DNA of 28,278 nt from Candidatus Micrarchaeota archaeon (GTDB taxonomy: Archaea > Micrarchaeota > Micrarchaeia > Anstonellales > Bilamarchaeaceae). Shown here one piece after another: positions 781-27,240 of this stretch. Where the stretch lies: contig CAZYGF010000001.1 in NCBI GenBank assembly GCA_964647575.1, positions 1-28,278 on the forward strand, given 5' to 3'. Position 1 is the first letter of the stretch. Each line of letters starts with the position of its first letter. The notes beneath the pieces are model-generated. The model searched no databases. It saw only the letters and a program-made list of their open reading frames with translations, and was not told the DNA's origin. The translations under genes were made by a program, and so were the position numbers.

Positions 781-1125
781 ATGGCTAATGGGATTACAAA
801 ACCGGAAAGCACAGAAATCGATAAAGCCAGAAAGGCATTGGTCACGCTGGCGAACGAGGGTTTCATAAAATTCCCTATCGCGCCGCTCTACCTCGGCAAC
901 TTCATGACCGAGCTGGCTCAGGAATACGTCAAGCTCAGGAACGCCAAGCCGGAGGGCGACAAAATCCAGCTGCTTAAGGATGCCATAGAAAATGCCCGGA
1001 GTACCACAAGCAACGTGATGCTGAACAAGGATACCTCTCCAAGTGCGTCCATAGCCGTCCTCAGCGAGGTCGGCGGCCTTTTCGGAAAAAGGTCAATAAA
1101 CAAATATCTGGAAAGCCTCGCCTAA
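781..1125 (+). CDS. Hypothetical protein, 114 aa
   Basis: ATG-started ORF filling the gap between HAD and dtdA, with natural-looking helical composition. Its stop overlaps the dtdA stop (1122-1125). No family recognised. Confidence 0.7.
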   Translation: MANGITKPESTEIDKARKALVTLANEGFIKFPIAPLYLGNFMTELAQEYVKLRNAKPEGDKIQLLKDAIENARSTTSNVMLNKDTSPSASIAVLSEVGGLFGKRSINKYLESLA

Positions 1126-1904
1126 ATCTTCCCGATTGCGATGCCGAATTTAGCTGCCAGCGCACTGACCTTCTCGCGCTGCGCCGCATTCGTTTCGTCC
1201 CTGGAGACCAGCACCTTCGACACCTTCTCCACGTTCTTCTCTATCGCCTGGCTGAACGTGCCCTCATCGAGCGCGTCTATGGCATATTTCGGGACTATAT
1301 GCCCTACCGCCAGCTGCGTTTCAAGGACGAGCTTCGTGAACGTTTTGGAGTAATGGCCCCCGCCGATGCCGAACACAGTTTCGAACGTTTCGCGCTTAGC
1401 CATCCTGTCGAGGACAGCAGTGACTGCGCTTGCGACCGCCTCCACCGCGTTTTCGTCTGCCCACTCCGCCTCGCCATTACCTATCTCCACGAACAGGATT
1501 GGCACATCGCAGGTGGGGCCGTGGTGGTCTGCCTCAAGGGAAACCGGCCACCCTATGCGGTCACCCGCCTTTTTCAGCTCCTGCAGCAGGATTTTCAGCG
1601 TGCTGGCTGCCGCGATGTTCAGCGTCTTCGGCTGGCCGCCCATGTCCGCGTTGCCCCAGTTGCCCGGCACGTGTGCGGTCAGCATTTTGCCAGGCACCTT
1701 GCTCCTGTGAGTGCTTAGAACAAGCAGGCAGTCCGTTTCGAAATCAGTTGGCACGTCGAGCACTGTCGGCGCATGCGTGTCAACCAGCCGCACGCCCCCG
1801 CGCTCCCATTCGTTCTCCGCCGCCTTCCTGAACCCGTGGCCTGCAATCAGCTTCCCGGCAATGTTCGCGCTCGCAGGATTTTGAGACGTAAAAAGTATTA
1901 TCAT
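1122..1904 (-). CDS. dtdA: Archaeal-type D-aminoacyl-tRNA deacylase (DTD2 family)
   Basis: Motifs LSTHRS, LTAHVPGNWG, EADHHGPT, FVEIG, GIGGGHY. Confidence 0.92.
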   Translation of the reverse strand: MIILFTSQNPASANIAGKLIAGHGFRKAAENEWERGGVRLVDTHAPTVLDVPTDFETDCLLVLSTHRSKVPGKMLTAHVPGNWGNADMGGQPKTLNIAAASTLKILLQELKKAGDRIGWPVSLEADHHGPTCDVPILFVEIGNGEAEWADENAVEAVASAVTAVLDRMAKRETFETVFGIGGGHYSKTFTKLVLETQLAVGHIVPKYAIDALDEGTFSQAIEKNVEKVSKVLVSRDETNAAQREKVSALAAKFGIAIGKI

Positions 1905-4893: not shown

Positions 4894-5463
4894 ATGAAAC
4901 CCGCTTTTCTCGCCCTGGTGGACCGGGACGGCACCATAAACGAGGAGGTCGACCTTCTCCACCACGAAAGCAGGCTCGTCCTCATCCCCGAAGCAGCCAA
5001 AGGCATAGGGCTGCTCAACTCGCATGGCATAAAGGTCGCCATAGTCACCAACCAGCCGGTGGTGGCGCGCGGCATGTGCAGCGAGGAGGACGTCCAGCGG
5101 ATAAACAAAAAGCTCGCGGAGCTGCTCGGGCGCGAGGGCGCACGCATCGACGCCGTCTATTACTGCCCGCACCATCCCGACCACCACCCGGAGGGCAATC
5201 CGGAATACCGCAAGGAATGCTACTGCAGGAAGCCGAAGACAGGCATGCTTGAGGAAGCGTCGAAAAAGTTCCACGTGCCGCCGGAACGGTGCTTCATGAT
5301 AGGCGACAGCACCCGCGACATCGCAGCCGGAAGGGATTTCGGCTGCAGGACGATACTCGTGGGAACCGGATACGGCGGCAGGGACGGCAGGTACACTGCG
5401 GCGCCGGACTACGCTTGCGGCAACCTCTATGAGGCGGCGAAGCTCGTGGTGAGCCTGATATGA
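4894..5463 (+). CDS. gmhB: D-glycero-D-manno-heptose 1,7-bisphosphate phosphatase (HAD-IIIA)
   Basis: DRDGTIN, VTNQ, Zn-site CPHH...CYCRKP, MIGDSTRD. Confidence 0.88.
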   Translation: MKPAFLALVDRDGTINEEVDLLHHESRLVLIPEAAKGIGLLNSHGIKVAIVTNQPVVARGMCSEEDVQRINKKLAELLGREGARIDAVYYCPHHPDHHPEGNPEYRKECYCRKPKTGMLEEASKKFHVPPERCFMIGDSTRDIAAGRDFGCRTILVGTGYGGRDGRYTAAPDYACGNLYEAAKLVVSLI

Positions 5464-6161
5464 AGGCAGTCATAGTGGCAGGCGGCCTTGGCACGCGGCT
5501 CGGCAACCTGACAAAAAAACTGCCGAAAGGCCTTGTCATGGTGAAGGGCAGGCCGGTTTTGGAGCACCAGATCCTCTGGCTGGCGCGCTACGGAATAAAG
5601 GACATCGTCATATGCGCAGGGCACCTGGCAGAGCATGTGCAGGCCTATTTCGGCGACGGCAGCCGGCTGGGGGTGCGCATCAGATACTCAGTGGAGCGGA
5701 AGCTTCTTGGAACTGGCGGCGCGCTCAGGCAGGCCGCGCCCCTTCTCAGCGGCAGGTTCGTCATGCTGTACGGCGACCTGGTCGGCGAGATGGACCTGCG
5801 GAAGCTGATTGCTTTCCACGCAGGGAAGGGCGGCCTCGGGACGCTCACGGTCCGTGAGAGCGACCATCCCTACGATTCTGACGTGGTGGAGGTCGCGTCC
5901 GACTGGGAGGTACGGCGCTTTATAGGAAAGCCCAGACCCGGGCAGAAATTCGTCAACATATCCAATGCAGGCGTCTATTGCTTCGAGAAGGCAATCCTGA
6001 AGTATTTCCCCCCTGGCAAATCGATGCTTGACCGGGACGTCCTGCCTGCAGTCCTGGCTAGGGGCGGGAAGCTCTATGCATACATGACAAGGGAGGAACT
6101 CATCGACATTGGCACGCCCGAGCGGCTGAAGAAGTCGCTCGGCGCGAAGCGGCATGGCTGA
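5460..6161 (+). CDS. Sugar-1-phosphate nucleotidyltransferase (HddC / mannose-1-P guanylyltransferase-like)
   Basis: AGGLGTRL...LPK, LGTGGAL, LYGD, NAGVY, DIGTPE. ATGA-coupled to gmhB. Confidence 0.85.
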   Translation: MKAVIVAGGLGTRLGNLTKKLPKGLVMVKGRPVLEHQILWLARYGIKDIVICAGHLAEHVQAYFGDGSRLGVRIRYSVERKLLGTGGALRQAAPLLSGRFVMLYGDLVGEMDLRKLIAFHAGKGGLGTLTVRESDHPYDSDVVEVASDWEVRRFIGKPRPGQKFVNISNAGVYCFEKAILKYFPPGKSMLDRDVLPAVLARGGKLYAYMTREELIDIGTPERLKKSLGAKRHG

Positions 6162-11016: not shown

Positions 11017-11051
11017 ACTTCGCCGAGGGCATAATTTTTAATTACATTTGA

Positions 11052-11086
11052 GATAACCTTTTATCGGAGAAACCTACTCTTGGAGG
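11052..11086 (+). promoter_or_regulatory. Promoter/RBS of the NeuB operon: TTTTAT (11059-11064) inside palindrome GATAA-CCTT-TTATC, and GGAGG at 11082-11086
   Basis: Read directly from the AT-rich 77-nt intergenic gap. Confidence 0.5.
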
Positions 11087-11093
11087 GACTAGG

Positions 11094-12200
11094 ATGGCTA
11101 GACCAATCATACATCTGGGAAAATACAGCATATCCGAGGATTCGCCCTGCTTCGTAATCGCGGAGATAGGCCACAACCACCAGGGGAACCTGGACCTGGC
11201 CCGGAAAATGATTGATGCTGCGGCCCAGGCCGGAGCCAATGCCGTCAAGTTCCAGAAAAGGTCCAAGGACCTTTTCACCGCAGAGATGTACAACCGGCCT
11301 TACGACAATGAGAACAGCTTCGGCAAGACCTATGGCGCGCACCGGGAAGCCCTTGAATTCGGCGAATCCGAGTACAAGGCGCTGAAGGCCCATGCGGAGA
11401 GCCTCGGCCTGGTCTTCTTCGCCACGCCATTCGATATAAAAAGCGTAGAGTTCCTGGAAAAAATAGGGGTGCCTGCCTATAAGATAGCTTCCGCCTGCAT
11501 AACCGACATCCCGCTTATAGAGCACGTCGCAAAAAAAGGCAAGCCAATCTTCCTTTCACTCGGCACAGCAACGCTGGAAGACGTGGACCGGGCGTATAAG
11601 TGCGTCAAGGAGTACCGTGTCCCGCTATGCCTGCTCCACTGCGTGGCCGCCTATCCGATGATGAACTATGAGGAAGCCAACCTCAACGTGATCCATACAT
11701 TGAAGGAGCGCTACCCGGACGCGTTAATCGGATTCTCCAGCCATGAAAGCGGCATCGTGCTACCGGTCGTGGCGTACATGCTCGGCGCGAGGGTCGTGGA
11801 GAAGCATTTCACCCTGAACCGCGCGATGAAAGGGACCGACCAGCAGTATTCGCTTGAGCCGCAGGGGCTTACGAAGATGGTCCGTGACCTGAACCGCATC
11901 CGCGAAGCCCTGGGCGACGGCAAAAAGGTGGTACAGCCCTCGGAACTCGATGCGAAAAAGAAAATGGGGAAGAGCATCTTCGCCAGGACCCGCATACCCA
12001 AGGGTTCGGTGGTCTCTCCGGAAATGATAACTTTCAAGAGCCCCGGCACCGGCCTTCCCCCCTACCTTGTGGACGATGTCCTCGGGCGGACTGCAAACCG
12101 CGATATAGCCCCCGACGTTCCCATCGACTACTCCCTTCTCGGGCCCGAGAAAGTCAAAAAATTCGGCAAAGTTGACTGGGGTGCGTTGCTTGGGAAATGA
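11094..12200 (+). CDS. neuB: NeuB-family PEP-dependent ulosonate synthase with C-terminal SAF domain; resembles Neu5Ac-9-P/KDN-9-P synthases
   Basis: AEIGHNHQG, VKFQKR, RPY...SFGKTYGAH, KIAS, LHCVAAYP, GFSSHE, VEKHFTL, MKGTDQ. Confidence 0.92.
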   Translation: MARPIIHLGKYSISEDSPCFVIAEIGHNHQGNLDLARKMIDAAAQAGANAVKFQKRSKDLFTAEMYNRPYDNENSFGKTYGAHREALEFGESEYKALKAHAESLGLVFFATPFDIKSVEFLEKIGVPAYKIASACITDIPLIEHVAKKGKPIFLSLGTATLEDVDRAYKCVKEYRVPLCLLHCVAAYPMMNYEEANLNVIHTLKERYPDALIGFSSHESGIVLPVVAYMLGARVVEKHFTLNRAMKGTDQQYSLEPQGLTKMVRDLNRIREALGDGKKVVQPSELDAKKKMGKSIFARTRIPKGSVVSPEMITFKSPGTGLPPYLVDDVLGRTANRDIAPDVPIDYSLLGPEKVKKFGKVDWGALLGK

Positions 12201-12672
12201 TCCGGGCCGGATAAGCCTCGTCGCATTCGATTTTGACGGCGTCTTCACCGACAACCGCGTATATGTGGACCAGGACGGCCGGGAAAGCGTCTGCTGCAGC
12301 CGCTCCGACGGCATCGGCATCAGGAAACTGGACCGGGCCGGCATAAAATCAATAGTCATATCCGCTGAAACGAACCCGGTCGTGGAAAAGCGGTGCGCCA
12401 AACTGGGCATAAGGTGCGTGGCCGGCTGCAAAGACAAGCTTTCCGTATTGAAGGCGGCCATGGCCGAATCCGGAGTGGGGCGGGAATCCGTATGCTTCGT
12501 AGGCAACGACCTCCCGGATATAGAATGCCTCAGGTATGCCGGCCTTCCCGTTGCGGTCAGGGACAGCTGCCCAGAAGTGCTCGATGCTGCCAAGTACGTG
12601 ACATCCGCTCCAGGCGGCCGCGGGGCGGTGCGTGAAGTCTGCGACATGATTGTGAACGAGGGGAGAAAATGA
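12190..12672 (+). CDS. KdsC-like HAD phosphatase (ulosonate-phosphate phosphatase)
   Basis: FDFDGVFTDN, SRSDG, ISAE, KDK, VGNDLPD, GGRGAVREVCD. Probable TTG start at 12190 with GGGGTG upstream; alternatives 12172 and 12181. Confidence 0.85.
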   Translation: MGNDPGRISLVAFDFDGVFTDNRVYVDQDGRESVCCSRSDGIGIRKLDRAGIKSIVISAETNPVVEKRCAKLGIRCVAGCKDKLSVLKAAMAESGVGRESVCFVGNDLPDIECLRYAGLPVAVRDSCPEVLDAAKYVTSAPGGRGAVREVCDMIVNEGRK

Positions 12673-13457
12673 AAAAAATGTTCGATCTCAGCGGCAAAGT
12701 CGCTGTCGTGACAGGAGGCCTCGGCAACCTGGGGCAGGAATTCGTGAAGACGCTGCGGGATGCAGGTGCCAAAGTGGCCATACTGGAAATCCGGCCGGGC
12801 GCCTACAAGGACAAGGGCGTCATCGTGTGCGAAGCCGACATATCGGACAAGCTATCCTTATCCAGGGCGCTGGCCGATATAACCGCGCGGCTCGGCAAGC
12901 CATCCATACTGGTCAACTGCGCCGCCATCGACTCTCCGCCGGAATACGGCAGCGGAAAGAAAAGCGGGCTCATAGAGAGCGACGGGGCGGAAAAAACATA
13001 CGACAAGGTCATGGCAGTGAATGTCAAGGGCACGCTCCTTTGCTCACAGGTATTCGGCAATTTCATGGCTGAAAACGGCGGCGGCAGCATAATAAACATC
13101 TCATCCATCTATGGCGAGATTTCCCCGGACCAGCGGATATACCTCAGGAAGGGGAGGGAGCGGGAATTCTTCAAGCCCATAGCCTACTGCGTGAGCAAGG
13201 CCGCCATACCGAACATGACCCGTTATCTTGCCACATACTTCGCAGGCTCCAAAGTGCGGGTGAATACGCTCACATTCGGCGGGGTATTCAACAACCAGGA
13301 CCAGGAGTTCGTGGCCAACTACTCCTCCAAGGTGCCTCTCGGGAGGATGGCGAGAAAAGACGAATACAACGGCGCCGTCCTGTTCCTGGCGTCAGACGCT
13401 TCCTCCTACATGACAGGCTCCAACCTCGTGATAGACGGAGGATATACAAGCTGGTGA
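12669..13457 (+). CDS. Classical SDR oxidoreductase, similar in pattern to PtmA-like SDRs of nonulosonic acid clusters
   Basis: TGGLGNLG, NCAAID, IINISSIYG, YCVSK, VPLGRM, MTGSNLVIDGG. ATGA overlap with the phosphatase. Confidence 0.88.
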   Translation: MKKMFDLSGKVAVVTGGLGNLGQEFVKTLRDAGAKVAILEIRPGAYKDKGVIVCEADISDKLSLSRALADITARLGKPSILVNCAAIDSPPEYGSGKKSGLIESDGAEKTYDKVMAVNVKGTLLCSQVFGNFMAENGGGSIINISSIYGEISPDQRIYLRKGREREFFKPIAYCVSKAAIPNMTRYLATYFAGSKVRVNTLTFGGVFNNQDQEFVANYSSKVPLGRMARKDEYNGAVLFLASDASSYMTGSNLVIDGGYTSW

Positions 13458-14947
13458 TGACTATGGCAAAGCGGTTTTTCAACTTCATAGGCGGCGAGTG
13501 GAAGGACTCGGTTACCAAGAGGACCTTCGAGAAGAGGAACCCGGCCGATGCCAGCGAAGTTCTCGGCGTTTTTCCCCTCTCCGGCGCTGCCGATGTGGAG
13601 GCTGCCTGCCAGGCGGCGGGAAAAGCTTTCAAGGCATGGTCCAGCGTCACCCCGCCCGCGAGAGGGAAACTGCTTTTCGAAGCCGGGCGGCTGCTGGCTT
13701 CCAAGAAAGAGGAGCTGGCGCAGGTGCTGGTCAGGGAGACCGGCAAGACCACCAAGGAGGCGCTCGGAGAGGTCAATGCAGCCATAGACATGGCATACTT
13801 CATGGCCGGCGAAGGGAGGCGCCTCTACGGCGACGTGACGCACTCTGAGCTTCCGAACCGGTGGGCGCTGACCAAGCGCTGCCCAATAGGCGTATGCGGC
13901 ATAGTCACCCCGTGGAACTTCCCCATGTCGCTCATAAGCTGGAAGGTCTTCCCGGCGCTTATCTGCGGCAATGCCGTGGTCCTCAAGCCGGCCGAAGATG
14001 CACCCGAGACCGCGAACCGCATCGCAGAGATCCTGGCAGAGGCGGGCCTGCCGCCAGGCGTCCTGAACATCGTCCATGGGGCCGGCGAAGAGGCAGGCGA
14101 TGCGCTGGTGCGGAACGCAAACGTGAAGATGGTGTCGTTCACAGGGTCAAGCGAAGTCGGGAGGCGGATAGCCGCCATATGCGGGGAACGCCTAGCCAAG
14201 GTGTCGCTAGAGCTCGGGGGCAAGAATGCCGTCATAGTCATGGACGATGCTGATCTCGACCTGGCTGTCAGCGGGATAGTCAAAGGTGCCTTTACCGTGG
14301 CCGGGCAGCGTTGCACAGCCACAAGCAGGGCAATCGTCCACCGGCGCATCTACGACAAATTCATGGAGAAGCTCGTTGCAGAGACAAAACGGCTCAAGGT
14401 CGGCGCCGGCGGAAAAGACGGCACTGACGTATGCCCTGTCATCAACCGGAAGCAGCTGGAAAGGATTGCGAAATACGCGGAAACAGGCAAGAAGGAGGGC
14501 GCCAGGCTGGTGCTCGGCGGCCACGTCCTAAAGGAAGGCACGCACGCAAAAGGGTTCTTTTTCGAGCCTACCATATTCGGCGAAGTGCGGCCGGAGATGA
14601 CCGTGGCGAAGGAGGAGATATTCGGGCCTGTGCTCGCGGTCTTCAGGGCAGAGTCGCTCGAGCAGGCAATAGGGCTCCTGAACGACAGCGCCTATGGCCT
14701 GTCAGCATCCATATTCACAAAAGACATCAACGCCGCCCTTTCAGCCGTGGAAAGCTTCGAAACAGGCGTCTGCTACGTCAATGCCCCGACATTCGGCTCC
14801 GAGGTCCACCTCCCATTCGGCGGCATGAAAAAATCCGGCAACGGCCATCGCGAAGTGGGCAAGGCGGCGATTGAAGCGTTCTCAGACCTGAAGACGATAT
14901 ACCTGGACTATAGCGGGGTGATCCAGAATGCCCAGTTCAAAAAATAA
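13454..14947 (+). CDS. NAD(P)-dependent aldehyde dehydrogenase
   Basis: TPWNFP, KPAED, FTGS, LELGGKN (catalytic Glu), AGQRC (catalytic Cys), EEIFGP, PFGG. GTGA overlap with the SDR. Confidence 0.93.
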   Translation: MMTMAKRFFNFIGGEWKDSVTKRTFEKRNPADASEVLGVFPLSGAADVEAACQAAGKAFKAWSSVTPPARGKLLFEAGRLLASKKEELAQVLVRETGKTTKEALGEVNAAIDMAYFMAGEGRRLYGDVTHSELPNRWALTKRCPIGVCGIVTPWNFPMSLISWKVFPALICGNAVVLKPAEDAPETANRIAEILAEAGLPPGVLNIVHGAGEEAGDALVRNANVKMVSFTGSSEVGRRIAAICGERLAKVSLELGGKNAVIVMDDADLDLAVSGIVKGAFTVAGQRCTATSRAIVHRRIYDKFMEKLVAETKRLKVGAGGKDGTDVCPVINRKQLERIAKYAETGKKEGARLVLGGHVLKEGTHAKGFFFEPTIFGEVRPEMTVAKEEIFGPVLAVFRAESLEQAIGLLNDSAYGLSASIFTKDINAALSAVESFETGVCYVNAPTFGSEVHLPFGGMKKSGNGHREVGKAAIEAFSDLKTIYLDYSGVIQNAQFKK

Positions 14948-16835
14948 GCTCCTTTTCACCAATGGCGATTTTGAGAGGGCCCGGTCCCTGGCGATTGGAC
15001 AGGCTGAAAAACTGTCAATCATCGCAGATATGATCCGCTTCAATGCCCTCGCAGCCATAGTGCATGCGCGCTCCGGTCATATCGGCGCCTCCTTCAGTGC
15101 CATAGAGATCCTTGCGGTGCTGTACCACCACACGATGCGCCTGGATGCGCGCAAGCCAGGCCAGGCCGGGCGTGACATATTCATCCTGTCAAAAGGCCAT
15201 GCCGCCGCAGGCCAGTACGCGGCCCTGGCTTCCGCGGGGTTCATCCCAGAAGAGCGCCTCCTCAGCTTCAGGCAGTTCCGCGGCCTGCAGGGGCACGTGG
15301 ACGTATCCGTGCCCGGGGTGGACGCGAACACAGGGTCGCTTGGCATGGGTCTGTCCAAGGGCAAAGGATACGCCTGGGCCGCCAAGGCAGGAAAGACCGG
15401 CGCGTCGGTCTATGTTATGGTTGGCGATGGCGAGCTCCAGGAAGGGCAGAACTGGGAGGCAATCCAGTCAGCCCCGCACCTCAAGCTGGACAACCTCTAT
15501 CTCATAGTGGACCGGAACATGGTGCAGACGGACAGGGAAGTGCACAGGATACTGGACATATCCCCGCTTGACGAGAAGCTCAGGTCTTTCGGCTGGGATG
15601 TCATGACCATCGATGGTAATGACGTGGCTCAGGTCCTTGATGCCCTGGGCCGCAAGGCCGTAAGCGGAAAGCCCAAGGCTATTATCGCGAATACAATCAA
15701 GGGCAAAGGTGTATCCTTCATGGAGCACCCGGCCGTGCTGTCGCGCGACGGCGTCTACCGCTGGCACGGCAGCATACCGAAAGAGGAGGAATACCGCCTG
15801 GCTTACGATGAGCTGGCCCACAGGCTGATGGCACATCGGGATTTCACGTCATCCGGAATCTCTTTCCCGCAGTTCTTCTGCCCGGATGCTGTGCCGGCGG
15901 CTTTCAAGGGAAAGGCGCTGAAAAAGGCGTTTTCCGATTCGCTTGTGGAACTGGCGGAAAAACAGCGCCAGATGGTGGTGATGGATGCAGACCTGGCAGA
16001 GGACTGCGGCCTCAGGGATTTCGAAAACCGCCATCCGGACCGTTTCATCGAGGTCGGCATAGCCGAGCAGGACATGGTTTCCATGGCCGGCGGCCTGGCG
16101 CTGTGCGGCAAGCTGCCCATCGTCAATACGTACACCGCATTCCTCACTTCGCGCTCCAATGAGCAGATTTTCAACAACGCCTCGGAGAAGACGAAAATCA
16201 TCTATGTGGGCCATCTCGCCGGGCTGCTCCCTGCCAAGCCTGGCAAATCCCACCAGGGGCTGCGGGACATCTCCCTGCTCAGGGCGGTGCCCGACATCCT
16301 CCTCGGGGCTCCGTGCAACGCCGCGGAACTGAAGCAGATGATGGACTACTTCGTGCTCGGGACCGGCAGGAACTGCTACCTGCGGCTTGAGCACTTCCCC
16401 CCCAGGAACGACGTCCCCCTTCCGAAAGGCTACCGGCTCGGATTAGGGAAAGGCGCCATATTGGCAGAGGGCAAAGATGCAGCCGTGATAGCATACGGGT
16501 CGCTCATGCTCTCAGAGGCGCTGTCAGCCGCTGAAGAGCTAAAAAAAGACGGCATCAGGGTCCGGGTGATAAACCTCCCTTGGCTGAACAACATAGACGC
16601 CAGATGGCTGCTCAAGGCCATCGATGGCGTAAAGCATGTCTTTTGCATCGAGAACCATTCGCTCACAGGCGGCCAGGGGGAAGAGGTCCTGCGGCTGGCA
16701 GGGCCAGGGCACGTAGTCCACATCCTGGGCGTGGCCGGCTTCGGGCAGTCCGGGGAAGCCGAGGACATCCTGCGCAACTACTCGCTTGATTATAAATCCA
16801 TAAGCGCCAGAATCGCTGCGGAGGTAAGGAAATGA
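14928..16835 (+). CDS. ThDP-dependent transketolase-family enzyme, single chain, with a divergent substrate site
   Basis: SGHIG, SKGH, QGH, GSLG, GDGELQEG...DRN, WHG, DADLA, GIAEQ. The canonical GEDGPTHQ reads AKPGKSHQ. Confidence 0.88.
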   Translation: MPSSKNKLLFTNGDFERARSLAIGQAEKLSIIADMIRFNALAAIVHARSGHIGASFSAIEILAVLYHHTMRLDARKPGQAGRDIFILSKGHAAAGQYAALASAGFIPEERLLSFRQFRGLQGHVDVSVPGVDANTGSLGMGLSKGKGYAWAAKAGKTGASVYVMVGDGELQEGQNWEAIQSAPHLKLDNLYLIVDRNMVQTDREVHRILDISPLDEKLRSFGWDVMTIDGNDVAQVLDALGRKAVSGKPKAIIANTIKGKGVSFMEHPAVLSRDGVYRWHGSIPKEEEYRLAYDELAHRLMAHRDFTSSGISFPQFFCPDAVPAAFKGKALKKAFSDSLVELAEKQRQMVVMDADLAEDCGLRDFENRHPDRFIEVGIAEQDMVSMAGGLALCGKLPIVNTYTAFLTSRSNEQIFNNASEKTKIIYVGHLAGLLPAKPGKSHQGLRDISLLRAVPDILLGAPCNAAELKQMMDYFVLGTGRNCYLRLEHFPPRNDVPLPKGYRLGLGKGAILAEGKDAAVIAYGSLMLSEALSAAEELKKDGIRVRVINLPWLNNIDARWLLKAIDGVKHVFCIENHSLTGGQGEEVLRLAGPGHVVHILGVAGFGQSGEAEDILRNYSLDYKSISARIAAEVRK

Positions 16836-17548
16836 AGGTCCTCGCACTGATACTCGCCCGGGGCGGCTCGACCCGCATACCTAAGAAGAACATCGTCATG
16901 CTCGGAGGGCGCCCCCTCATCTTCTACACCATCGACGCTGCAAAGAGGTCAAAGCGCATAAACCGGATAATAGTTTCCACAGACAGCCGGGAAATCGCCG
17001 ACGTGGCCGTGAAATGCGGGGCAGAGGCGCCTTTCCTCAGGCCCGTGGAGATATCGAAATCAGATTCCACAGAGCTCGAAGCGTTCGAGCATGCGCTTGG
17101 CTGGCTCAAGGAGAACGAGGGCTATGTGCCCGACCTGATAGTCAAGCTCTTCCCGACATCGCCGTTCAGGAAGGCCGAATCAATAGACAAGGCGGTTGAG
17201 CTCATGATTGCCAATCCGGATGCGGACAGCGTCCGCTCAGTATGCCTCTGCAAGGAGCACCCCTACAAGATGTGGGTTATCGAGAACAAGCGCCTCAGGC
17301 CATTTGTGCCGTGGGAGAAGAAGCCGAAGGAGGCCCACACGCTCTCCTACCAGCTCCTGCCGCCGGTCTATGTGAACAACGCAAGCATCGATGTGACTAA
17401 ACCAGCAACGATATTCAATAAAAAATCCGTGACCGGAAGGGAGATCGTACCCTACCCGATGGAAGAATCGGAATCGCTCGACATCAATACCCGCATTGAC
17501 CTGGAACTCGCAAAAATCCTCATCGCGAAACCGCAGAAAGCCCGCTGA
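16832..17548 (+). CDS. neuA: CMP-ulosonic acid synthetase (acylneuraminate cytidylyltransferase family)
   Basis: ARGGSTRIPKKN, VSTD, PFLRP, PTSPFR, SLDI. ATGA overlap with the transketolase and GGAGGT RBS. Confidence 0.9.
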   Translation: MKVLALILARGGSTRIPKKNIVMLGGRPLIFYTIDAAKRSKRINRIIVSTDSREIADVAVKCGAEAPFLRPVEISKSDSTELEAFEHALGWLKENEGYVPDLIVKLFPTSPFRKAESIDKAVELMIANPDADSVRSVCLCKEHPYKMWVIENKRLRPFVPWEKKPKEAHTLSYQLLPPVYVNNASIDVTKPATIFNKKSVTGREIVPYPMEESESLDINTRIDLELAKILIAKPQKAR

Positions 17549-18784
17549 CTATACCACTTTCACTTCGGGCAGCGGCATGATGAACTTCCCGCCCTCATCC
17601 GCGAACCATTTCTCCTTCTTCGTTATCTCTTCGAAGTAGCTCCACGCCAGGATTAGTATGTAATCCGGCCTTTCCCTGTCTTCCCTCAGCCTTTTTGGCT
17701 GGAATATGGGTATGTGCACCCCCGGCATCACCCTGCCATACCTTTCCGGCGACTCATCAACCACATAATCAATCAAATCCTTCCCAAGGTTGCAGTAATT
17801 CAGCAGTATGGTGCCTCTTCCCGGCGCCCCGTAGGCGATTATCTTCTTGTTTTCGTATTTTAATTTTTTTATGAGGCCGGCAAGCTCCTTCTTTTTCCGT
17901 TCCACATTTTCCGCGAATTTCCTGTATCCCTTTTCGTCGTGCAGGCCCAGCGACTCTTCCAGGCGGATCAAATCGGCCACGGAGCGGTCCACATTATTTT
18001 TCCCGATTTTTTTCGCATGGACGCTTATGGAACCGGAATGTATCGGTATCCGTTTTACCCGTGTTATCTGCATCCCGTACCTGTTCATCAGGGCCTGGAG
18101 GGCCTTCACCGAGTAGTAGCACAGGTGCTCATGGTATATGGTATCGTACTGCACCTTCTCGATAAGGTCCACGATGTAGTGCACCTCAAAAACGAAAACG
18201 CCATCGTCTTTCAGCAATGTTTGTATGCCCTTCATGATGTCGTCTATGTCATCTATGTGCGCGAATACGTTATTCGCCAGCAGCATGTCCGCATTGCCCT
18301 TCTCGCTCCTGAGTTTTTCTGCAGTGCGTTCAGAGAAGAAATCGGTTATCACTTCCAACCCCTTTGCCTTCGCGACTTTCGCTATGTTCTCCGCCGGCTC
18401 AAATCCTATGCCCTTTACCCCCAGGTCCTCCAATGGCTTTAACAGGACGCCGTCATTGCATCCTATCTCCACAGCCAGCGAATCCCCGCCCAGCCCATAT
18501 TCCGAAACGAGCTCCCGTGCGTGCCGTTCGAAATGCTCCCGCAACGTTTTAGTGACCGATGACAGGTACCTGTAGTCCATGAACAGTATTTCCGGCGGCA
18601 CGATATCCATTATCTGCACCAGGGAGCAGGCCCTGCAGAAATAAACATCCAGCGGGAATTTCTGTTCCTGGGGTATCTGCTCCTCTTTTATGAATCCGCC
18701 TGCCAGCGGGACGTTTCCCAATGAAAGGAATCTTACGACATCCTTGCCATGGCAGACCCTGCAGTCCTCTCTATGGTTTAACAT
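17549..18784 (-). CDS. NDP-hexose 3-C-methyltransferase (TylC3/TcaB9/NovU family)
   Basis: Zn site CRVC...CRAC, EIGCNDG, NNVFAHI, IYHEH, YGAPGRG, PGVHIPI, LAWSY. Confidence 0.88.
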   Translation of the reverse strand: MLNHREDCRVCHGKDVVRFLSLGNVPLAGGFIKEEQIPQEQKFPLDVYFCRACSLVQIMDIVPPEILFMDYRYLSSVTKTLREHFERHARELVSEYGLGGDSLAVEIGCNDGVLLKPLEDLGVKGIGFEPAENIAKVAKAKGLEVITDFFSERTAEKLRSEKGNADMLLANNVFAHIDDIDDIMKGIQTLLKDDGVFVFEVHYIVDLIEKVQYDTIYHEHLCYYSVKALQALMNRYGMQITRVKRIPIHSGSISVHAKKIGKNNVDRSVADLIRLEESLGLHDEKGYRKFAENVERKKKELAGLIKKLKYENKKIIAYGAPGRGTILLNYCNLGKDLIDYVVDESPERYGRVMPGVHIPIFQPKRLREDRERPDYILILAWSYFEEITKKEKWFADEGGKFIMPLPEVKVV

Positions 18785-19643
18785 AAGGTTTCCTCTTCCA
18801 GGCGTAGGTCGTCATGTGCTGCGGATACGCTGTTTTCGTCTCGTACCCATATTCAGGGAGCAACTTCTCCAGCGCGTATCGTGTATACTTCCCGTCCACT
18901 ATGTGGTTGGATGCTATCGCCAGGTGGGCATCGCTCTGCGCCAAAATCCGTTTCGCTCCCTTTACGGTCTCTATCTCGGCCCCTTCGATATCCATCTTTA
19001 TGAAATCCACCTTCTCTATGCCCAGCGCCCTGAGCTCTTCGTCCAGGGTGACCACCGGCACCTCGATGACGCTTTTGGCCGCGCTTGGATTCGGGATTAT
19101 CGGGCTTTTCGACTTGTCCAGGAAAAGCGTGGACGTTCCCAGCCCCTTATTGTCGAACTTCATCTTCCCGGATTTGCTCCAGGTCGCCTTGTTCAGCAAT
19201 ATGACGTTGTGCACGCCGTTCATTTCTAGATTCCTGGCTGTCCTTTCATAATTGACCGGGTCCGGCTCGAACGCTATCACCTTCCCGTTTTTCCCGGCGA
19301 GTTTTGCCGCATATATGGTGAAGATGCCTATGTACGCCCCGCAGTCCACTATGGTGTCTCCTTCCGTGATATTGTATGCGCCCAAATCCCCCTTTAGGAG
19401 GTGGGGGATGCGGCTCCAGAACTCATCCAGGTTCCACATGTCCTTGGGGCATTTCAACGAGATGCCGTTGGAGAACCGGTATTCGAAATAATTGTCGCCC
19501 CCGGCAATCTCGCACGGGATGTTGTGCGTATGATAATAGATGGGGTATAGCTTAAGCCGCAGGAAATCCTTGGGCGCGCATTCCGGGCAATACTGGAAAA
19601 ACCTGAAAAATACCGCATTTTCCATCTTTGTAAGTATGCCCAT
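18771..19643 (-). CDS. FkbM-family SAM methyltransferase
   Basis: VDCGAYIG, AFEPDP, FIKMDIEGAE. GGTGA RBS. Confidence 0.87.
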   Translation of the reverse strand: MGILTKMENAVFFRFFQYCPECAPKDFLRLKLYPIYYHTHNIPCEIAGGDNYFEYRFSNGISLKCPKDMWNLDEFWSRIPHLLKGDLGAYNITEGDTIVDCGAYIGIFTIYAAKLAGKNGKVIAFEPDPVNYERTARNLEMNGVHNVILLNKATWSKSGKMKFDNKGLGTSTLFLDKSKSPIIPNPSAAKSVIEVPVVTLDEELRALGIEKVDFIKMDIEGAEIETVKGAKRILAQSDAHLAIASNHIVDGKYTRYALEKLLPEYGYETKTAYPQHMTTYAWKRKPYVKP

Positions 19644-19676
19644 GTCTTCACCAATCTAATTCGGCATCGCGCGTCG

Positions 19677-20570
19677 CTACGTCATTATTCCTTTCGTCTG
19701 CTTCCTTTTATTTCTTATCCATCCCAGGTCGAAGGACTCCGCTATGCCCTGCACGGTCGCAATGCCGCAATCCCAGCTGGTGAACAGCGTGTGCATCATG
19801 CCCGCCAGCAATACCCTCGCGAAAACCAGGGGGGAGAGCAGGACTATCTTGTAGGCTGGGTAAAATCCGAAAAAAAAGAGCAGCTTGTTCCTTGTGTACA
19901 GTCGGCATATGTCCGCCTTGGTGAAATTGCGCTTTACCGAGCCCTGGTGGAAATGGTAGAGCACCGAATCCTGGCACATCCTGATCATGTTGCCGCCAGC
20001 CCTGAGCCTGAAGGAGTAGTCGATGTCCTCCCAATACAGGAAGTATCTCTCTTCCATGGGAAATTTCTTCACCACCGCGGTCCTGAGCAACGTCGCGCCC
20101 AGCCCGGCATAGGGGATGTCCTCCATCGGCACTGTGCTGACGTTGCCGGAACAGGTTACAACATCGAACCGGGTGCCTGCCGCTTCCACCTTGCCTGTTT
20201 TTGGCGAGACCAGCCTGCTCATGACCGCCACCACCGACTTATCTTTTTCCAAAACATCCACGGATTTGGCGAGCCATCTCTTGTCAGGGATTATGTCTTC
20301 GTTCAGGAACGCCACATATTCTCCGCTCAGATGCGCGATGGAGCGGTTGAGCCCGCCGGCGCACCCGTAGTTCTTATCCAATTTTATCAGCTTCACCTTG
20401 TCCCTGTATGCGCCCGCGGCAATGAAATCCGTCGTTCCATCGTCGCTCCCATTGTCCACTATGATTACGTTCATCGCAGGGTAGTCCGTTTCCAATATCC
20501 TGGGGAGCGTCGTTTCCAATATGGCGCCGCTGTTGTACGCCAGGATGACCACATCCACTTTAGGTTTCAT
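19677..20570 (-). CDS. GT2 glycosyltransferase (rhamnosyltransferase-like)
   Basis: VILAYN, VDNGSDD, NYGCAGGLN, LNEDI, YFLYWEDIDYSFR, YHFHQGS. Confidence 0.88.
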   Translation of the reverse strand: MKPKVDVVILAYNSGAILETTLPRILETDYPAMNVIIVDNGSDDGTTDFIAAGAYRDKVKLIKLDKNYGCAGGLNRSIAHLSGEYVAFLNEDIIPDKRWLAKSVDVLEKDKSVVAVMSRLVSPKTGKVEAAGTRFDVVTCSGNVSTVPMEDIPYAGLGATLLRTAVVKKFPMEERYFLYWEDIDYSFRLRAGGNMIRMCQDSVLYHFHQGSVKRNFTKADICRLYTRNKLLFFFGFYPAYKIVLLSPLVFARVLLAGMMHTLFTSWDCGIATVQGIAESFDLGWIRNKRKQTKGIMT

Positions 20571-21306
20571 CGCCGCCCCCCAGCTTGTATTTTTTCCATC
20601 TTGTAGAATCGAGCGACATGTCCACCATCAGGCGGTAATCCGCTGTTTTTTCAAATTGCGCATAGGAGATGGGCTTTACCCCCGGCGTAGTCATTTTTGC
20701 GAGGTCGTACATGCTCAGCTTCCTGTCGCCTGTTATGTGGATTATGCCCGTCTGCCCGGCCTGGTAAACCTCATTTATGGCGCGGGCCAGGCCGTCGGCA
20801 AACAGATAAGTGCCATACCTGTCGATAAACGCCCCCTCATAGGGCCATTTCTCCTTTGGCACGAAATTAGCGCGGATTATCAGCTTCTTCTCCAGGGGGG
20901 CAGCGTCAACTGCGGTTTCGGCGACCAGTTTCGTGATGCCGTAATAGCTCCCCGGCGCCGGTACGTCGTCTTCCCTGTACCCGCCCTTCCCGCCGTCAAA
21001 AACACAGGCAGTCGACATGTAGATGAAATAGCATTTTTTATCGTGCTTTGCGCAGGCACCCAGCAGGTTCTTGGTGCCCTCGACGTTTATCCTCCACGCC
21101 TTCCCCTTGTCGTGTTCGCATCCAGGGACGCTGGTCATGGCGGCCAGATGGAATATCGCATCGGGCTTATGCCGTTCGATATAACCCTCTACCATCTTTT
21201 TATCAGTAATATCCAATTCTTTGCTATCCGGGGTTAAGGCATCCACAAAGATTTTTTTCATCTCTTTCCCAAGCCTTCCCGAAGCCCCGGTTATCAAAAC
21301 GCTCAT
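20560..21306 (-). CDS. NDP-4-keto-6-deoxyhexose reductase (RmlD-like SDR)
   Basis: TGASGRLG, LDIT, HLAAMT, STACVF, YYGITK. Start placed at ATG 21306 (ATGA overlap with the upstream stop). Confidence 0.82.
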   Translation of the reverse strand: MSVLITGASGRLGKEMKKIFVDALTPDSKELDITDKKMVEGYIERHKPDAIFHLAAMTSVPGCEHDKGKAWRINVEGTKNLLGACAKHDKKCYFIYMSTACVFDGGKGGYREDDVPAPGSYYGITKLVAETAVDAAPLEKKLIIRANFVPKEKWPYEGAFIDRYGTYLFADGLARAINEVYQAGQTGIIHITGDRKLSMYDLAKMTTPGVKPISYAQFEKTADYRLMVDMSLDSTRWKKYKLGGGDET

Positions 21307-22247
21307 GCCAGCCACTTCGTGCTCGTCAAAAGGCCCCGTATCCCCGCCTTGTCCAGCTTCTTGGCATTACCGGACGTGAATTCGTCAACCCTGCCGCTTT
21401 CATAGGCATCGCGTGGGTGGATGATGAAATATTCCGGTTTCTCCTCAGTCCTCATCATCTCCTCTTCCTGGACAAGCGTCTCGTGGATCTTCTCCCCGGG
21501 CCTGATTTTCGAGATGTGAGTCTTGACCCCATAATGCTGGGCGATGACCTCTGCCAGGTCCAGCATGTAGCCGGACGGGGATTTCCTCACGAACAGCTCG
21601 CCGCCCTTCCCGTTCTGCAGCGCATAGAAAACGAGGCCTATGGCATCATCCAGGGTCAGCAGGAATCTCGTCATGTCCTTGTGCGTCACACCGAGGGGCT
21701 TTTTCTCCTTGGCCAGGCCGACGAAATAAGGGACGACGCTGCCCCTGCTCCCCACGATGTTCCCGTACCTTACGCCCACAATCTTGGTGCCATGGTCGAA
21801 TTCATCAGATAAGAATATCTTTTCCTGGAGCGCCTTTGACATGCCCATGGCATTGACTGGCTTCACCGCCTTGTCGGTGGATATGAACACGATCTTGCCA
21901 ACCCCCTCCTCCACGGCGAGCCTCTTGACGTTGTACGCGCCCGTTATGTTCGTTTTCACCGCTTCCATTGGGTGGATTTCGCATTCGGGCACCTGTTTCA
22001 GCGCAGCGGCATGGAATACAGTATCCACGTCCCTCATGGCCTCCTTCACCCTGTCGTGGTCCCTCACGTCGCCCAATACGAAATTGAACTCAGGATACTC
22101 CATTTTCATCTCGAACTGGAGGTTCTCATGGCGCGAAAGTATGCGGACCTCCTTCGGCTTCAGAGGTATCAGTTTGCTCGCTATCGTGTGCCCGAAACTT
22201 CCGGTCCCGCCGGTTACCAGAACCACTTTACCCGTAATGTGCTCCAT
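21303..22247 (-). CDS. UDP-GlcNAc 4,6-dehydratase/epimerase (FnlA/CapE/WbjB-like)
   Basis: TGGTGSFG, HAAALKQVP, STDKAVKPVNAMGMSK (Met at the Tyr position), RYGNIVGSRGSV, MTRF, RPGEK. Confidence 0.88.
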   Translation of the reverse strand: MEHITGKVVLVTGGTGSFGHTIASKLIPLKPKEVRILSRHENLQFEMKMEYPEFNFVLGDVRDHDRVKEAMRDVDTVFHAAALKQVPECEIHPMEAVKTNITGAYNVKRLAVEEGVGKIVFISTDKAVKPVNAMGMSKALQEKIFLSDEFDHGTKIVGVRYGNIVGSRGSVVPYFVGLAKEKKPLGVTHKDMTRFLLTLDDAIGLVFYALQNGKGGELFVRKSPSGYMLDLAEVIAQHYGVKTHISKIRPGEKIHETLVQEEEMMRTEEKPEYFIIHPRDAYESGRVDEFTSGNAKKLDKAGIRGLLTSTKWLA

Positions 22248-22351: not shown

Positions 22352-23005
22352 ATGGCATTAAGACAGACTCTTAAAAGCGTGCTATGCCCCTTTTACGAAC
22401 CTTTCATACCTAGTTATGAAACCGAACTAAGAAACGCCGTGGCTGGCTGCAAAAGCCTGCTGGACGTCGGCTGCGGTTCTTCCTCTCCCATAAAGGCCTT
22501 CTCGAAAAGCCTATACTGCGTCGGAGTGGACCTTTTCGAACCCAGCATCAAGGAGAGCAGGAAACAAAAAATCCATAACATGTGTTACGTGCTGGATGTC
22601 CTCGACATAGATAAGCGTTTCAAGGAAAAATCCTTCGATTGCGTCGTGGCCCTGGGGGTCATAGAGCACCTGGATAAAAAAGCCGGTATCGCGCTATTGA
22701 AAAAAATGGAGAAAGTCGCTAAGAAAAAAATAATCATCACAATGCCCAACGGCTTCGTGCCCCAGGGCGTTCATTTCGGCAATCCCCTCCAGGTCCACAG
22801 GTCCGGCTGGACCGTTGAAGAGATGAGGCGGTACGGATATGACGTGATCGGCATAAGCGGGTGGAAACCCCTCCGTGGGGAGGCCGGCCATATAAAATAT
22901 CAGCCCGATACGTTCTGGGCTGGCGTTTCCCTCCTGTCAAAACCAATCGTGAGAAACATGCCCGAACATGCCTTTGAACTGCTGTGCATCAAGCAGCTCT
23001 CATGA
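22352..23005 (+). CDS. Class I SAM-dependent methyltransferase
   Basis: LLDVGCG, GVDL, SFDCVVALGVIEHL, ITMPN. Confidence 0.85.
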   Translation: MALRQTLKSVLCPFYEPFIPSYETELRNAVAGCKSLLDVGCGSSSPIKAFSKSLYCVGVDLFEPSIKESRKQKIHNMCYVLDVLDIDKRFKEKSFDCVVALGVIEHLDKKAGIALLKKMEKVAKKKIIITMPNGFVPQGVHFGNPLQVHRSGWTVEEMRRYGYDVIGISGWKPLRGEAGHIKYQPDTFWAGVSLLSKPIVRNMPEHAFELLCIKQLS

Positions 23006-23057
23006 GCCTGCCGGCAGCAATCAGGCCGTGTATCGCATTTTTATTCGTGCGGGTCTA

Positions 23058-25671: not shown

Positions 25672-25686
25672 CCCACGGCTGGCATA

Positions 25687-25693
25687 TTAAAAA
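25687..25693 (+). promoter_or_regulatory. TATA-like box TTAAAAA
   Basis: 22 nt upstream of the gmhA ATG at 25716. Confidence 0.45.
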
Positions 25694-25715
25694 ACTCACC
25701 CTCCTAAATCCAACC

Positions 25716-26294: not shown

Positions 26295-26300
26295 CGTCAT

Positions 26301-27236: not shown

Positions 27237-27240
27237 TGCC

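Follow-up and report, generated by a model that had tools for sequence, protein, structure and literature searches.

The window analysed here, a stretch of 28,278 nucleotides from a Candidatus Micrarchaeota archaeon, encodes a sialic acid-type synthase whose gene is followed at once by that of a phosphatase, and the locus raises the question of which sugar this pair would act on and what acid would finally be formed from it. The initial annotation had likened the synthase to the eukaryote-type and Bacteroides 9-phosphate enzymes and had proposed that a hexose 6-phosphate, most simply Man-6-P, is converted to KDN. The reading that we favour, and regard as reasonably probable, goes further: a synthase from a sister clade of animal NANS would take an aldose with a terminal phosphate, the coupled HAD phosphatase would dephosphorylate the product, and an SDR, a transketolase-like enzyme and an aldehyde dehydrogenase (ALDH) would convert the C9 acid to a CMP-activated ulosaric acid.

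The gene unit and the synthase protein

An archaeal host, already suspected from the sequence, is supported by an archaeal DtdA gene, by a genome of about 1 Mb and by the closest named homologue of the synthase, which comes from a Ca. Micrarchaeota genome and is 78% identical. The leader upstream of the synthase is likely to mark the start of a six-gene unit, as read from the sequence, and may act as its promoter (Table 1).

Table 1. Features of the window, numbered from its first nucleotide.
Feature	Position	Strand	Basis
Archaeal DtdA	1122-1904		PF04414
Intergenic leader, AT-rich in part, with a GGAGG that lies 7 nt upstream of the synthase start codon (ATG)	11017-11093	+	Sequence reading, ORF map
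NeuB-family PEP-condensing ulosonate synthase, TIM barrel and SAF domain, NANS-sister clade	11094-12200	+	Profiles, homologues, tree
KdsC/YrbI-subfamily (type C0) HAD phosphatase	12172-12672	+	TIGR01670, motifs DFDGVFTD and GNDLPD
Classical SDR oxidoreductase, gluconate-5-dehydrogenase-like	12669-13457	+	Profiles; 4-nt overlap with the phosphatase
Aldehyde dehydrogenase, semialdehyde-dehydrogenase-like	13454-14947	+	Profiles
Transketolase-like ThDP enzyme in a single chain, lacking the canonical residues that bind sugar phosphate	14928-16835	+	Profiles, comparison with TktA
CMP-ulosonic acid cytidylyltransferase (CTP_transf_3), resembling PseF but under the equivalog cut-off	16832-17548	+	Profiles
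KpsC/KpsS-like (PF05159) protein	22968-24464	+	Profile

The synthase gene is translated into a protein of 368 amino acids that has the two-domain build of the NeuB family, a NeuB TIM barrel (PF03102, 262.9 bits, covering profile positions 1-241 of 241) followed by a C-terminal SAF/AFP-like domain (PF08666, 38.4 bits). All of the motifs quoted in the initial annotation are found in this translation: AEIGHNHQG at residues 23-31, RPYDNENSFGKTYGAH at 68-83, LEF at 87-89, SHESG at 216-220, MKGTDQQ at 245-251 and KMGKS at 290-294. A search of the ESM Atlas with the synthase returned generic NeuB clusters only.

Relationship of the synthase to known enzymes

Four groups of sialic-acid-type synthase are usually distinguished, NeuB, LegI, PseI and the eukaryote-type 9-phosphate enzymes, and the bacterial NeuB, LegI and PseI enzymes use non-phosphorylated sugars as substrates. 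The window synthase shares the fold and the PEP- and metal-binding motifs of these bacterial enzymes; it is 37-39% identical to E. coli K1 NeuB and to a NeuB-type paralogue from M. fulvum, and its matches in the PDB include N. meningitidis NeuB (1XUZ) and C. jejuni PseI (8H2C), with E values from 1e-44 to 4e-48. It nevertheless scores below the cut-offs of both equivalog models, with 303.8 bits against 399.65 for NeuB/NnaB (TIGR03569, which includes the LegI type) and 264.2 bits against 340.25 for PseI (TIGR03586). As controls, E. coli K1 NeuB (456.8) and the M. fulvum paralogue (505.3) pass the former, and a PseI-type paralogue from S. soli (465.7) passes the latter. Animal NANS, like the window synthase, fails both.

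The synthase differs from classic NeuB in a signature, KFQK..PY..NS[FW]GxTYGxH[KR]..LE[FL] together with KxGKS, that is common to the retrieved animal NANS sequences. The classic enzymes have KFQTF where the window synthase has KFQKR, they do not carry the NSFGxTYGxHR block, and they keep an Arg at position 316 that is Ser in the window synthase. Residue 55 is Lys in 100% of the operon and NANS clades and Thr in the classic enzymes; K290 and K293 are conserved. That the motif block is an insertion relative to classic NeuB was considered and rejected; because the stretch of N. meningitidis NeuB at this place is of similar length, the block is best described as a replaced segment. The corresponding stretch is missing only in the Leptospira enzyme 6ncs.

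The phylogeny was examined in a quick tree of 121 rows and in a careful maximum-likelihood tree of 68 rows, in which the animal anchors were four named synthases, from cricket (P0213), pseudoscorpion (NANS, P0262), clam (P0228) and aphid (P0174). In the careful tree the window synthase lies in a clade of operon-borne enzymes (100/100), which is sister (92/94) to the clade that holds the four animal synthases (96/93), and the classic clade of E. coli K1 NeuB, NeuB/LegI-type and PseI-type enzymes is split from the rest with 100/99. Support for the sister relation is good, if not of the highest grade. At five positions the sister clades conserve different residues. The nearest representative at 50% clustering (P0071, 56% identity) is itself a synthase-HAD fusion; further homologue and cluster searches returned no names beyond those of animals, protist transcripts and the FCB group.

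The placement originally proposed therefore stands in part. The synthase does not group with NeuB, LegI-type or PseI-type enzymes, its clade is sister to that of animal NANS, and the signature is common to both; it falls outside the NANS clade itself, the 9-phosphate reference in this tree being the animal enzymes, as BT1714 of Bacteroides and the P. parvum enzyme were not among the rows. Judged by these trees, the operon clade is a separate, large and uncharacterised sister clade of the NANS clade and, among prokaryotes, the closest relative of the animal NANS group. The synthase is a member of a fifth clade, whose motif has more than 600 matches in species-representative genomes; for hundreds of species, to annotate such genes as N-acetylneuraminate synthase is almost certainly an error. 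The clade also bears on where among prokaryotes the phosphate-dependent branch, from which animal sialic acid synthesis arose, is found.

The phosphatase and the predicted substrate

The KdsC-like phosphatase noted after the synthase is confirmed by profile search (TIGR01670, 111.9 bits against a cut-off of 106.95), with motif I, DxDGxxTD, intact. Its ORF overlaps the 3′ end of the synthase gene by 29 nt, and each of the candidate starts (TTG at 12172, GTG at 12181 and TTG at 12190) overlaps the synthase stop codon. Like the Kdo-8-P phosphatase KdsC, it belongs to the type C0 HAD proteins of about 150 residues without a cap domain, and its best PDB matches are 3mmz (E 1e-33) and KdsC structures, whereas BT1713 is matched only with E 3e-15. 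It differs from KdsC in standing in a NeuB-type rather than a KdsA-type operon and in having GND rather than GDD in motif IV, and it falls below the cut-offs of the KdsC equivalog (119 against 208) and of the Bacteroides KDN-9-P phosphatase model NF058599 (83.5 bits against 180). The KdsC models score it higher than the Bacteroides model does.

Conservation of the neighbourhood was counted over 80 related loci from about 20 bacterial phyla. A HAD phosphatase of either kind is present in 43 of these, a KdsC-like one in 28 and an unrelated one (PF12710/HAD_2) in 15 others; the two never occur together, and the type of HAD tracks the subclade of the synthase. Moreover, signature-bearing synthases are fused to a HAD in P0071, P0128, P0217, P0172 and L021, in three architectures, the HAD being of the KdsC type in P0071, P0128 and L021, whereas among ten synthase fusions from outside the two sister clades none is to a HAD. 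As in NANS-type systems, the synthase has a dedicated sugar-acid phosphate phosphatase as partner, a trait that is not universal. Gene coupling, the fusions and the complementary distribution of two unrelated HADs back a route through a phosphorylated intermediate, in which the synthase would most likely condense PEP with an aldose carrying a terminal phosphate and the translationally coupled phosphatase would remove the phosphate from the product.

A synthase that uses a free aldose, as NeuB, LegI and PseI do, with the HAD acting on another intermediate or as an accessory, would agree with the absence of any detectable HAD from 20 of the 55 related loci that have at least 8 kb downstream. It would also agree with genome-wide searches (query P0002) of five genomes with HAD-less loci, as no KdsC-like gene was found in four of them, the closest relative (Micrarchaeota, 78% identity) included; the phosphatase is therefore either dispensable or replaced in these organisms. 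Redundant sugar phosphatases are, however, a known cause of missing dedicated genes and can account for such gaps. A homologue of the dedicated phosphatase is likewise absent from P. parvum (PMC6200933). Because the fusions are independent, the two unrelated HADs are complementary and the synthase is placed apart from all classic non-phosphate enzymes, we consider the free-aldose route improbable.

For the identity of the phosphorylated aldose, the simplest candidate is Man-6-P, from which KDN-9-P would be formed. ManNAc-6-P was set aside because neither NeuC nor a kinase is present: as had been noted for neuC, ManNAc kinase, aminotransferase and acetyltransferase, no Epimerase_2/NeuC, ROK kinase, DegT aminotransferase or acetyltransferase domain was detected in the 38 ORFs of the window that were scanned, and a whole-genome search with PF02350 gave only a sub-threshold match on another contig. 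The substrate could also be another sugar phosphate, either D-glycero-D-manno-heptose 7-phosphate, supplied by the GmhA of the window and leading to a 10-carbon acid, or a pentose or tetrose phosphate. The window does encode GmhA, a PfkB kinase, a GmhB-like protein and a nucleotidyltransferase, and no convincing phosphomannose isomerase was found in its genome (56% complete) or in a 93%-complete congener; in the window's genome PF01238 gave no match, TIGR02128 a sub-threshold one and PF01050 two cupin matches just above the cut-off, to which no clean ORF could be tied. The heptose genes nevertheless make up a separate NDP-heptose set of the usual kind, and because a gmhA homologue was found in none of the 80 related loci, heptose supply does not belong to the conserved system. 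A pentose phosphate would, by our reasoning, yield a chain-shortened product with too few carbons for a pyranose ulosaric acid. These other sugar phosphates are accordingly improbable as substrates, and Man-6-P is retained as the candidate.

The conserved operon and the predicted end product

In the related loci, the SDR gene directly follows the synthase or the phosphatase gene in 72 of 80, and ALDH (58/80), the CMP-transferase (56/80) and the transketolase-like enzyme (45/80) belong to the same overlapping gene string. The transketolase-like enzyme keeps the catalytic residues of E. coli TktA (H26, H66, H100, D155, N185, E411 and H473). At R358, S385, H461 and R520, however, it carries A, A, G and H. 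Since the sugar-phosphate site is lost, it is not an enzyme of central metabolism. Cultured carriers of the operon are Magnetospirillum fulvum DSM 13234, Solirubrobacter soli DSM 22325 and Thermosulfuriphilus ammonigenes. A literature search found no report on a synthase-SDR-ALDH-transketolase operon, and nothing of relevance turned up on teichulosonic or ulosaric acid.

The simplest pathway would end at KDN, running from Man-6-P through KDN-9-P and KDN to CMP-KDN as in Bacteroides thetaiotaomicron, with the SDR, ALDH and transketolase-like genes unrelated to it. The synthase does adjoin NANS in the tree, a phosphatase and a CMP-transferase are both in the operon, and the strict Man-6-P enzyme of P. 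parvum demonstrates that such pathways exist (PMC6200933). But so fixed a partnership over about 20 phyla would be difficult to account for if these three genes had nothing to do with the synthase, and a transketolase without a phosphate site would hardly serve central metabolism; we therefore think it unlikely that KDN is the end product. The conversion of Man-6-P to KDN is probably incomplete as a full account of the locus: that SDR, ALDH and the transketolase-like enzyme accompany the synthase argues that a KDN-like acid, if made, is an intermediate.

In the favoured pathway, the free C9 acid would be oxidised by the SDR next to its terminal CH2OH, a C2 unit would be removed by the transketolase-like enzyme, and the new aldehyde would be oxidised to a carboxylate by ALDH; this order relative to the synthase is suggested by gene order, the lost phosphate site and the chemistry. 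The resulting 3-deoxy-2-ulosaric acid would be activated with CMP and transferred to a glycan. The KpsC/KpsS-like protein is tentatively a candidate for this transferase; in a Micrarchaeota relative (L002), a homologue with 50% identity is encoded about 1.6 kb away from the operon.

A more specific proposal, which is possible but distinctly more speculative, is that the synthase and phosphatase together open a hitherto undescribed pathway, common across Bacteria and taken up by a few Micrarchaeota, that leads to a CMP-activated C7 3-deoxy-2-ulosaric (dicarboxylic) acid, an isomer or relative of Dha. A KDN-like C9 acid would be oxidised at C8, lose C8-C9 in a transketolase-type reaction and undergo aldehyde oxidation. 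To our knowledge, the origin of Dha is still unknown, in plants included. No biosynthetic genes for a heptulosaric acid sugar are known in any organism (PMC12168206), so that this route, if true, would be the first. The operon is in any case a concrete, testable candidate for making an acidic surface sugar of a new kind, perhaps a heptulosaric acid.

Comparison with known pathways

Animal NANS, an N-acylneuraminate-9-phosphate/KDN-9-phosphate synthase, likewise combines a NeuB barrel with a SAF/AFP-like domain and is 38-43% identical to the window synthase. The latter differs in belonging to a prokaryotic clade of its own, in its operon with SDR, ALDH and transketolase-like genes, and in having no ManNAc-6-P supply genes with it. 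The succession of synthase, type C0 HAD phosphatase and CMP-transferase is that of BT1714 and BT1713 of Bacteroides thetaiotaomicron and of P. parvum; we know of no SDR/ALDH/transketolase module in these KDN pathways, and PMC6200933 does not mention one. The Bacteroides, Prymnesium and human pathways run via phosphorylated intermediates, and the P. parvum Kdn-9-P synthetase, when tested biochemically, accepted Man-6-P as its sole substrate (PMC6200933).

For the later steps, there is an experimental precedent in the conversion of 5-keto-D-gluconate to L-tartrate, in which ketol formation is followed by transketolase cleavage and a semialdehyde dehydrogenase (PMC13527115). There, a dehydrogenase introduces a terminal ketol into a sugar acid, transketolase removes a C2 unit, and an aldehyde dehydrogenase, the succinate-semialdehyde dehydrogenase, forms the second carboxylate, so that both the enzyme classes and their order match those proposed here (PMC13527115; PMC7970118). 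The pathway of the window would differ from the L-tartrate route in that its proposed substrate is a C9 3-deoxy-2-ulosonic acid and its transketolase is diverged and dedicated and lacks the phosphate site.

The synthase family and its distribution

The synthase ATG is preceded by a 77-nt AT-rich spacer and then by GGAGG, 7 nt ahead of the ATG, and the 368-aa translation contains every motif quoted in the initial annotation, namely AEIGHNHQG (residues 23-31), RPYDNENSFGKTYGAH (68-83), LEF (87-89), SHESG (216-220), MKGTDQQ (245-251) and KMGKS (290-294). In domain searches the protein matches NeuB over its full length (262.9 bits) and also SAF, and it falls below the curated NCBIfam equivalog cut-offs of both NeuB_NnaB (303.8 vs 399.65) and PseI (264.2 vs 340.25). 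When 1.84 billion cluster representatives were searched exhaustively with HMMER, 150 relatives (37-56% identity) came up, and 76 of them contain the block [FWY]Gx[TS][YF]GxH. Four of these carriers are, by their cluster names, animal enzymes: a Gryllus AFP-like protein (P0213), Cordylochernes NANS (P0262), a Mercenaria sialic acid synthase-like protein (P0228) and an aphid sialic acid synthase (P0174). All four read KFQKS/KTN...RPY..[HN]S[WF]G[KP]TYGEH[KR]..LEF, so that the resemblance to NANS pointed out in the initial annotation is real. Classic enzymes, in contrast, have KFQTF...EYQ...SQ..ML..LEL or KxQTYTADT at the same site. The block is not an insertion relative to classic NeuB; it is a replaced segment, because the corresponding stretch of N. 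meningitidis NeuB is about as long.

Classic references for the phylogeny were E. coli K1 NeuB (strain UTI89) and the NeuB/LegI-type and PseI-type paralogues of Magnetospirillum fulvum and Solirubrobacter soli, each labelled by the equivalog model whose cut-off it passes; the named references on the NANS side were the four animal enzymes, and the comparison with 9-phosphate synthases covers these. A quick IQ-TREE analysis (LG+C20+F+G4 PMSF, 121 rows) and a careful tree (68 rows, ultrafast bootstrap and SH-aLRT) were concordant. In the careful tree, classic NeuB, LegI and PseI are separated from all other sequences (support 100/99), and the window synthase groups with none of them. It lies in a 26-row clade (100/100), which holds every sequence from SDR-ALDH-TK operons and is sister (92/94) to a clade of the four animal enzymes and eight unnamed relatives (96/93). 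Its proposed membership of the 9-phosphate clade is thus correct in setting it apart from NeuB, LegI and PseI, but the synthase stands outside the NANS clade, in a sister clade of its own that has no characterised member. Other lineages that carry the signature, among them a cytidylyltransferase-synthase fusion group, lie below the two sisters, and the NANS side includes FCB-group bacteria. By column statistics, every sequence of the two sister clades has Lys at position 55 (100%), where classic enzymes have Thr, and the sisters also share conserved K290 and K293. At position 316 the operon clade has Ser in place of the Arg kept by classic enzymes; in N. meningitidis NeuB this Arg contacts the N-acetyl group.

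Unusual architectures also occur in the family. P0133 (679 aa), a signature-bearing synthase with a Hint_2 (intein-type) domain after NeuB profile position ~154, is a NeuB-family enzyme interrupted by an intein; P0159 (595 aa), from the NANS-side clade, is fused to a GT29 sialyltransferase domain; and several proteins (P0154, P0165 and P0194; 574-634 aa) are cytidylyltransferase-synthase fusions.

The host (assembly 0.99 Mb, 56% complete) is archaeal, as first supposed: archaeal DtdA is present, and the closest named homologues of the synthase are from Ca. Micrarchaeota. Related loci, taken as the best 80 of at least 600 motif-scan matches in a species-representative genome collection, come from about 20 bacterial phyla, including the cultured M. 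fulvum and S. soli, and from one Micrarchaeota genome. In a 151-genome sample of the phylum, an operon-type synthase orthologue was found only in the window and one congener, the other 13 matches being 34-41% identical and from other subfamilies; it therefore looks as though the genus gained the operon from bacteria.

The phosphatase and the phosphate route

Features of the window and of related loci. Counts are homologues beside the synthase (tblastn of window proteins) in the best 80 of at least 600 related loci, many contigs of which end early
Feature	Position	Strand	Basis or note	Loci
Synthase (NeuB family)	11094-12200	+	translated ORF, 368 aa	
Cap-less HAD phosphatase, 150 residues	12172-12672		next ORF, overlapping synthase stop codon	
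SDR	12669-13457		operon gene 3; domain/model search	72/80
Aldehyde dehydrogenase (ALDH)	13454-14947		operon gene 4; domain/model search	58/80
Transketolase-like protein (TK), single-chain	14928-16835		operon gene 5; domain/model search	45/80
CTP_transf_3 cytidylyltransferase	16832-17548		operon gene 6; domain/model search	56/80
gmhA				0/80
NDP-heptose gene set	4894-6161 and 25608-27729	+	both island ends	
Sugar-modification cassette	17549-22247	-		
KpsC/KpsS-like protein	22968-24464	+	PF05159	
KpsC/KpsS-like homologue	L002:16915-18273	-	50% identical, ~1.6 kb from operon	
Cytidylyltransferase-KdsC-like fusion	L090:754-1980	+	Chloroflexi CFX5	
Pfam-less family, ~567 aa	L003:742-2445		20 loci	
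Pfam-less family, ~307 aa	L074:9048-9971		14 loci	
Pfam-less family, ~157 aa	L067:12620-13093		7 loci	

The KdsC-like phosphatase described as following the synthase at once does so, and the four genes after it overlap by 4-20 nt. It passes the KdsC/YrbI subfamily cut-off (111.9 vs 106.95) and falls below the equivalog cut-offs of KdsC (119 vs 208) and of the Bacteroides KDN-9-P phosphatase (83.5 vs 180). The nearest solved structures are 3mmz (E 1e-33) and then those of KdsC, whereas B. thetaiotaomicron KDN-9-P phosphatase structures match more weakly (E 3e-15). As had been noted, neuC, ManNAc kinase, aminotransferase and acetyltransferase genes are missing from the window: NeuC, ROK-kinase, DegT and acetyltransferase domains were found in none of the 38 ORFs scanned, and a search of the whole assembly gave no PF02350 match above cut-off.

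Coupling, fusions, HAD distribution and characterised relatives point to a phosphorylated product of the synthase. The nearest 50%-cluster representative (P0071) is a fusion of the synthase with a KdsC-like HAD closely resembling the phosphatase query (P0002), an architecture shared by P0128 and locus L021; P0217 is a HAD-synthase fusion and P0172 a HAD_2-cytidylyltransferase-synthase fusion. Ten fusions whose synthases belong to neither sister clade all lack a HAD domain, their partners being methyltransferase, cytidylyltransferase, radical SAM, AP_endonuc_2 or amine oxidase domains. Among the best 80 of at least 600 related loci, 28 have a KdsC-like gene, 15 others have an unrelated HAD (PF12710/HAD_2, ~230-265 aa) at the far operon end, and none has both; the HAD type tracks the synthase subclade, the KdsC type occurring in those closest to the window synthase. 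To our knowledge, all characterised relatives on the NANS side use sugar phosphates.

Man-6-P is the sole substrate of the P. parvum enzyme, which leaves Man, ManNAc, ManNAc-6-P and Ara-5-P unconverted; according to the authors, the human, Bacteroides and Prymnesium routes proceed by phosphorylation and then dephosphorylation (PMC6200933). A phosphatase is clearly not obligatory for the pathway, as a detectable HAD is absent from 20 of the 55 loci, among the best 80 of at least 600, that extend at least 8 kb downstream. Four of five genomes of HAD-less loci searched, including that of a 78%-identical Micrarchaeota relative, have no P0002 homologue, and the fifth (Chloroflexi CFX5) has, away from its phosphatase-less operon, a cytidylyltransferase-KdsC-like fusion with the same architecture as mammalian CMP-sialic acid synthetase. 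A missing dedicated enzyme has a known explanation in redundant sugar phosphatases, and P. parvum likewise has no homologue (PMC6200933).

The substrate

Man-6-P is the simplest guess for the substrate, and the genome context gives it no support: type I PMI was not found in the genome search, scores with the archaeal PGI/PMI model stayed below threshold both in this genome and in a 93%-complete congener, and PF01050 gave just two marginal cupin matches. Heptose-7-P as a general substrate is likewise not supported, since gmhA is absent from all of the best 80 of at least 600 loci; the heptose genes of the window are an ordinary NDP-heptose set, with a GmhB-like HAD and a nucleotidyltransferase at one end and a SIS GmhA, a PfkB kinase and a cytidylyltransferase-like protein at the other. 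No conserved precursor-supplying isomerase, epimerase or kinase was found across the best 80 of at least 600 loci, and the recurrent extra genes encode glycosyltransferases, ABC exporters, methyltransferases and, in a minority, a DegT aminotransferase. A substrate from central metabolism fits this pattern.

Other neighbours may be mentioned. Three Pfam-less families are found repeatedly next to the synthase, on the strand of the operon, among the best 80 of at least 600 loci, the ~307-aa family directly upstream of it. The minus-strand cassette (Methyltransf_13/14 sugar C-methyltransferase, FkbM methyltransferase, GT2, RmlD-like reductase and Polysacc_synt_2 dehydratase) appears to yield a branched or methylated deoxy sugar. 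PF05159 is a family of beta-Kdo transferases, and the KpsC/KpsS-like protein, which has homologues in the Micrarchaeota relative L002 and, weakly, downstream of the operon in Fibrobacterota locus L044, is a candidate for transferring the CMP-activated acid.

The conserved operon and its predicted product

The usual gene order in related loci is synthase-(phosphatase)-SDR-ALDH-(CMP-transferase)-TK. Because the synthase lies in its own large clade, defined by this conserved downstream module, plain KDN is an unlikely end point and probably not the final product, and the whole operon may constitute a new pathway. When aligned to E. coli TktA, all 31 operon TKs keep H26, H66, H100, D155, N185, E411 and H473, and the sugar-phosphate-holding residues are gone (the window TK has A, A, G and H in place of R358, S385, H461 and R520), as is D469. 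Because these residues are missing, the operon TK cannot bind sugar phosphates in the usual way, which fits an enzyme acting downstream of the phosphatase.

The SDR, TK and ALDH match the enzymes of the route from 5-keto-D-gluconate to L-tartrate, long proposed (PMC7970118) and experimentally shown (PMC13527115), in which a sugar acid first receives a terminal ketol from a dehydrogenase, transketolase then cleaves off the C2 unit, and the second carboxylate comes from a semialdehyde dehydrogenase. By analogy, KDN would be converted to 8-keto-KDN, which by configurational reasoning has the D-threo arrangement required of transketolase donors, then to a C7 aldehyde and to 3-deoxy-hept-2-ulosaric acid, which would finally become a CMP ester. 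Among natural sugars of this class only Dha is well known, and neither the enzymes that make it nor its activated form have yet been identified (PMC3355719; PMC12168206); with Man-6-P as the start, the pathway would be predicted to yield not Dha itself but one of its stereoisomers.
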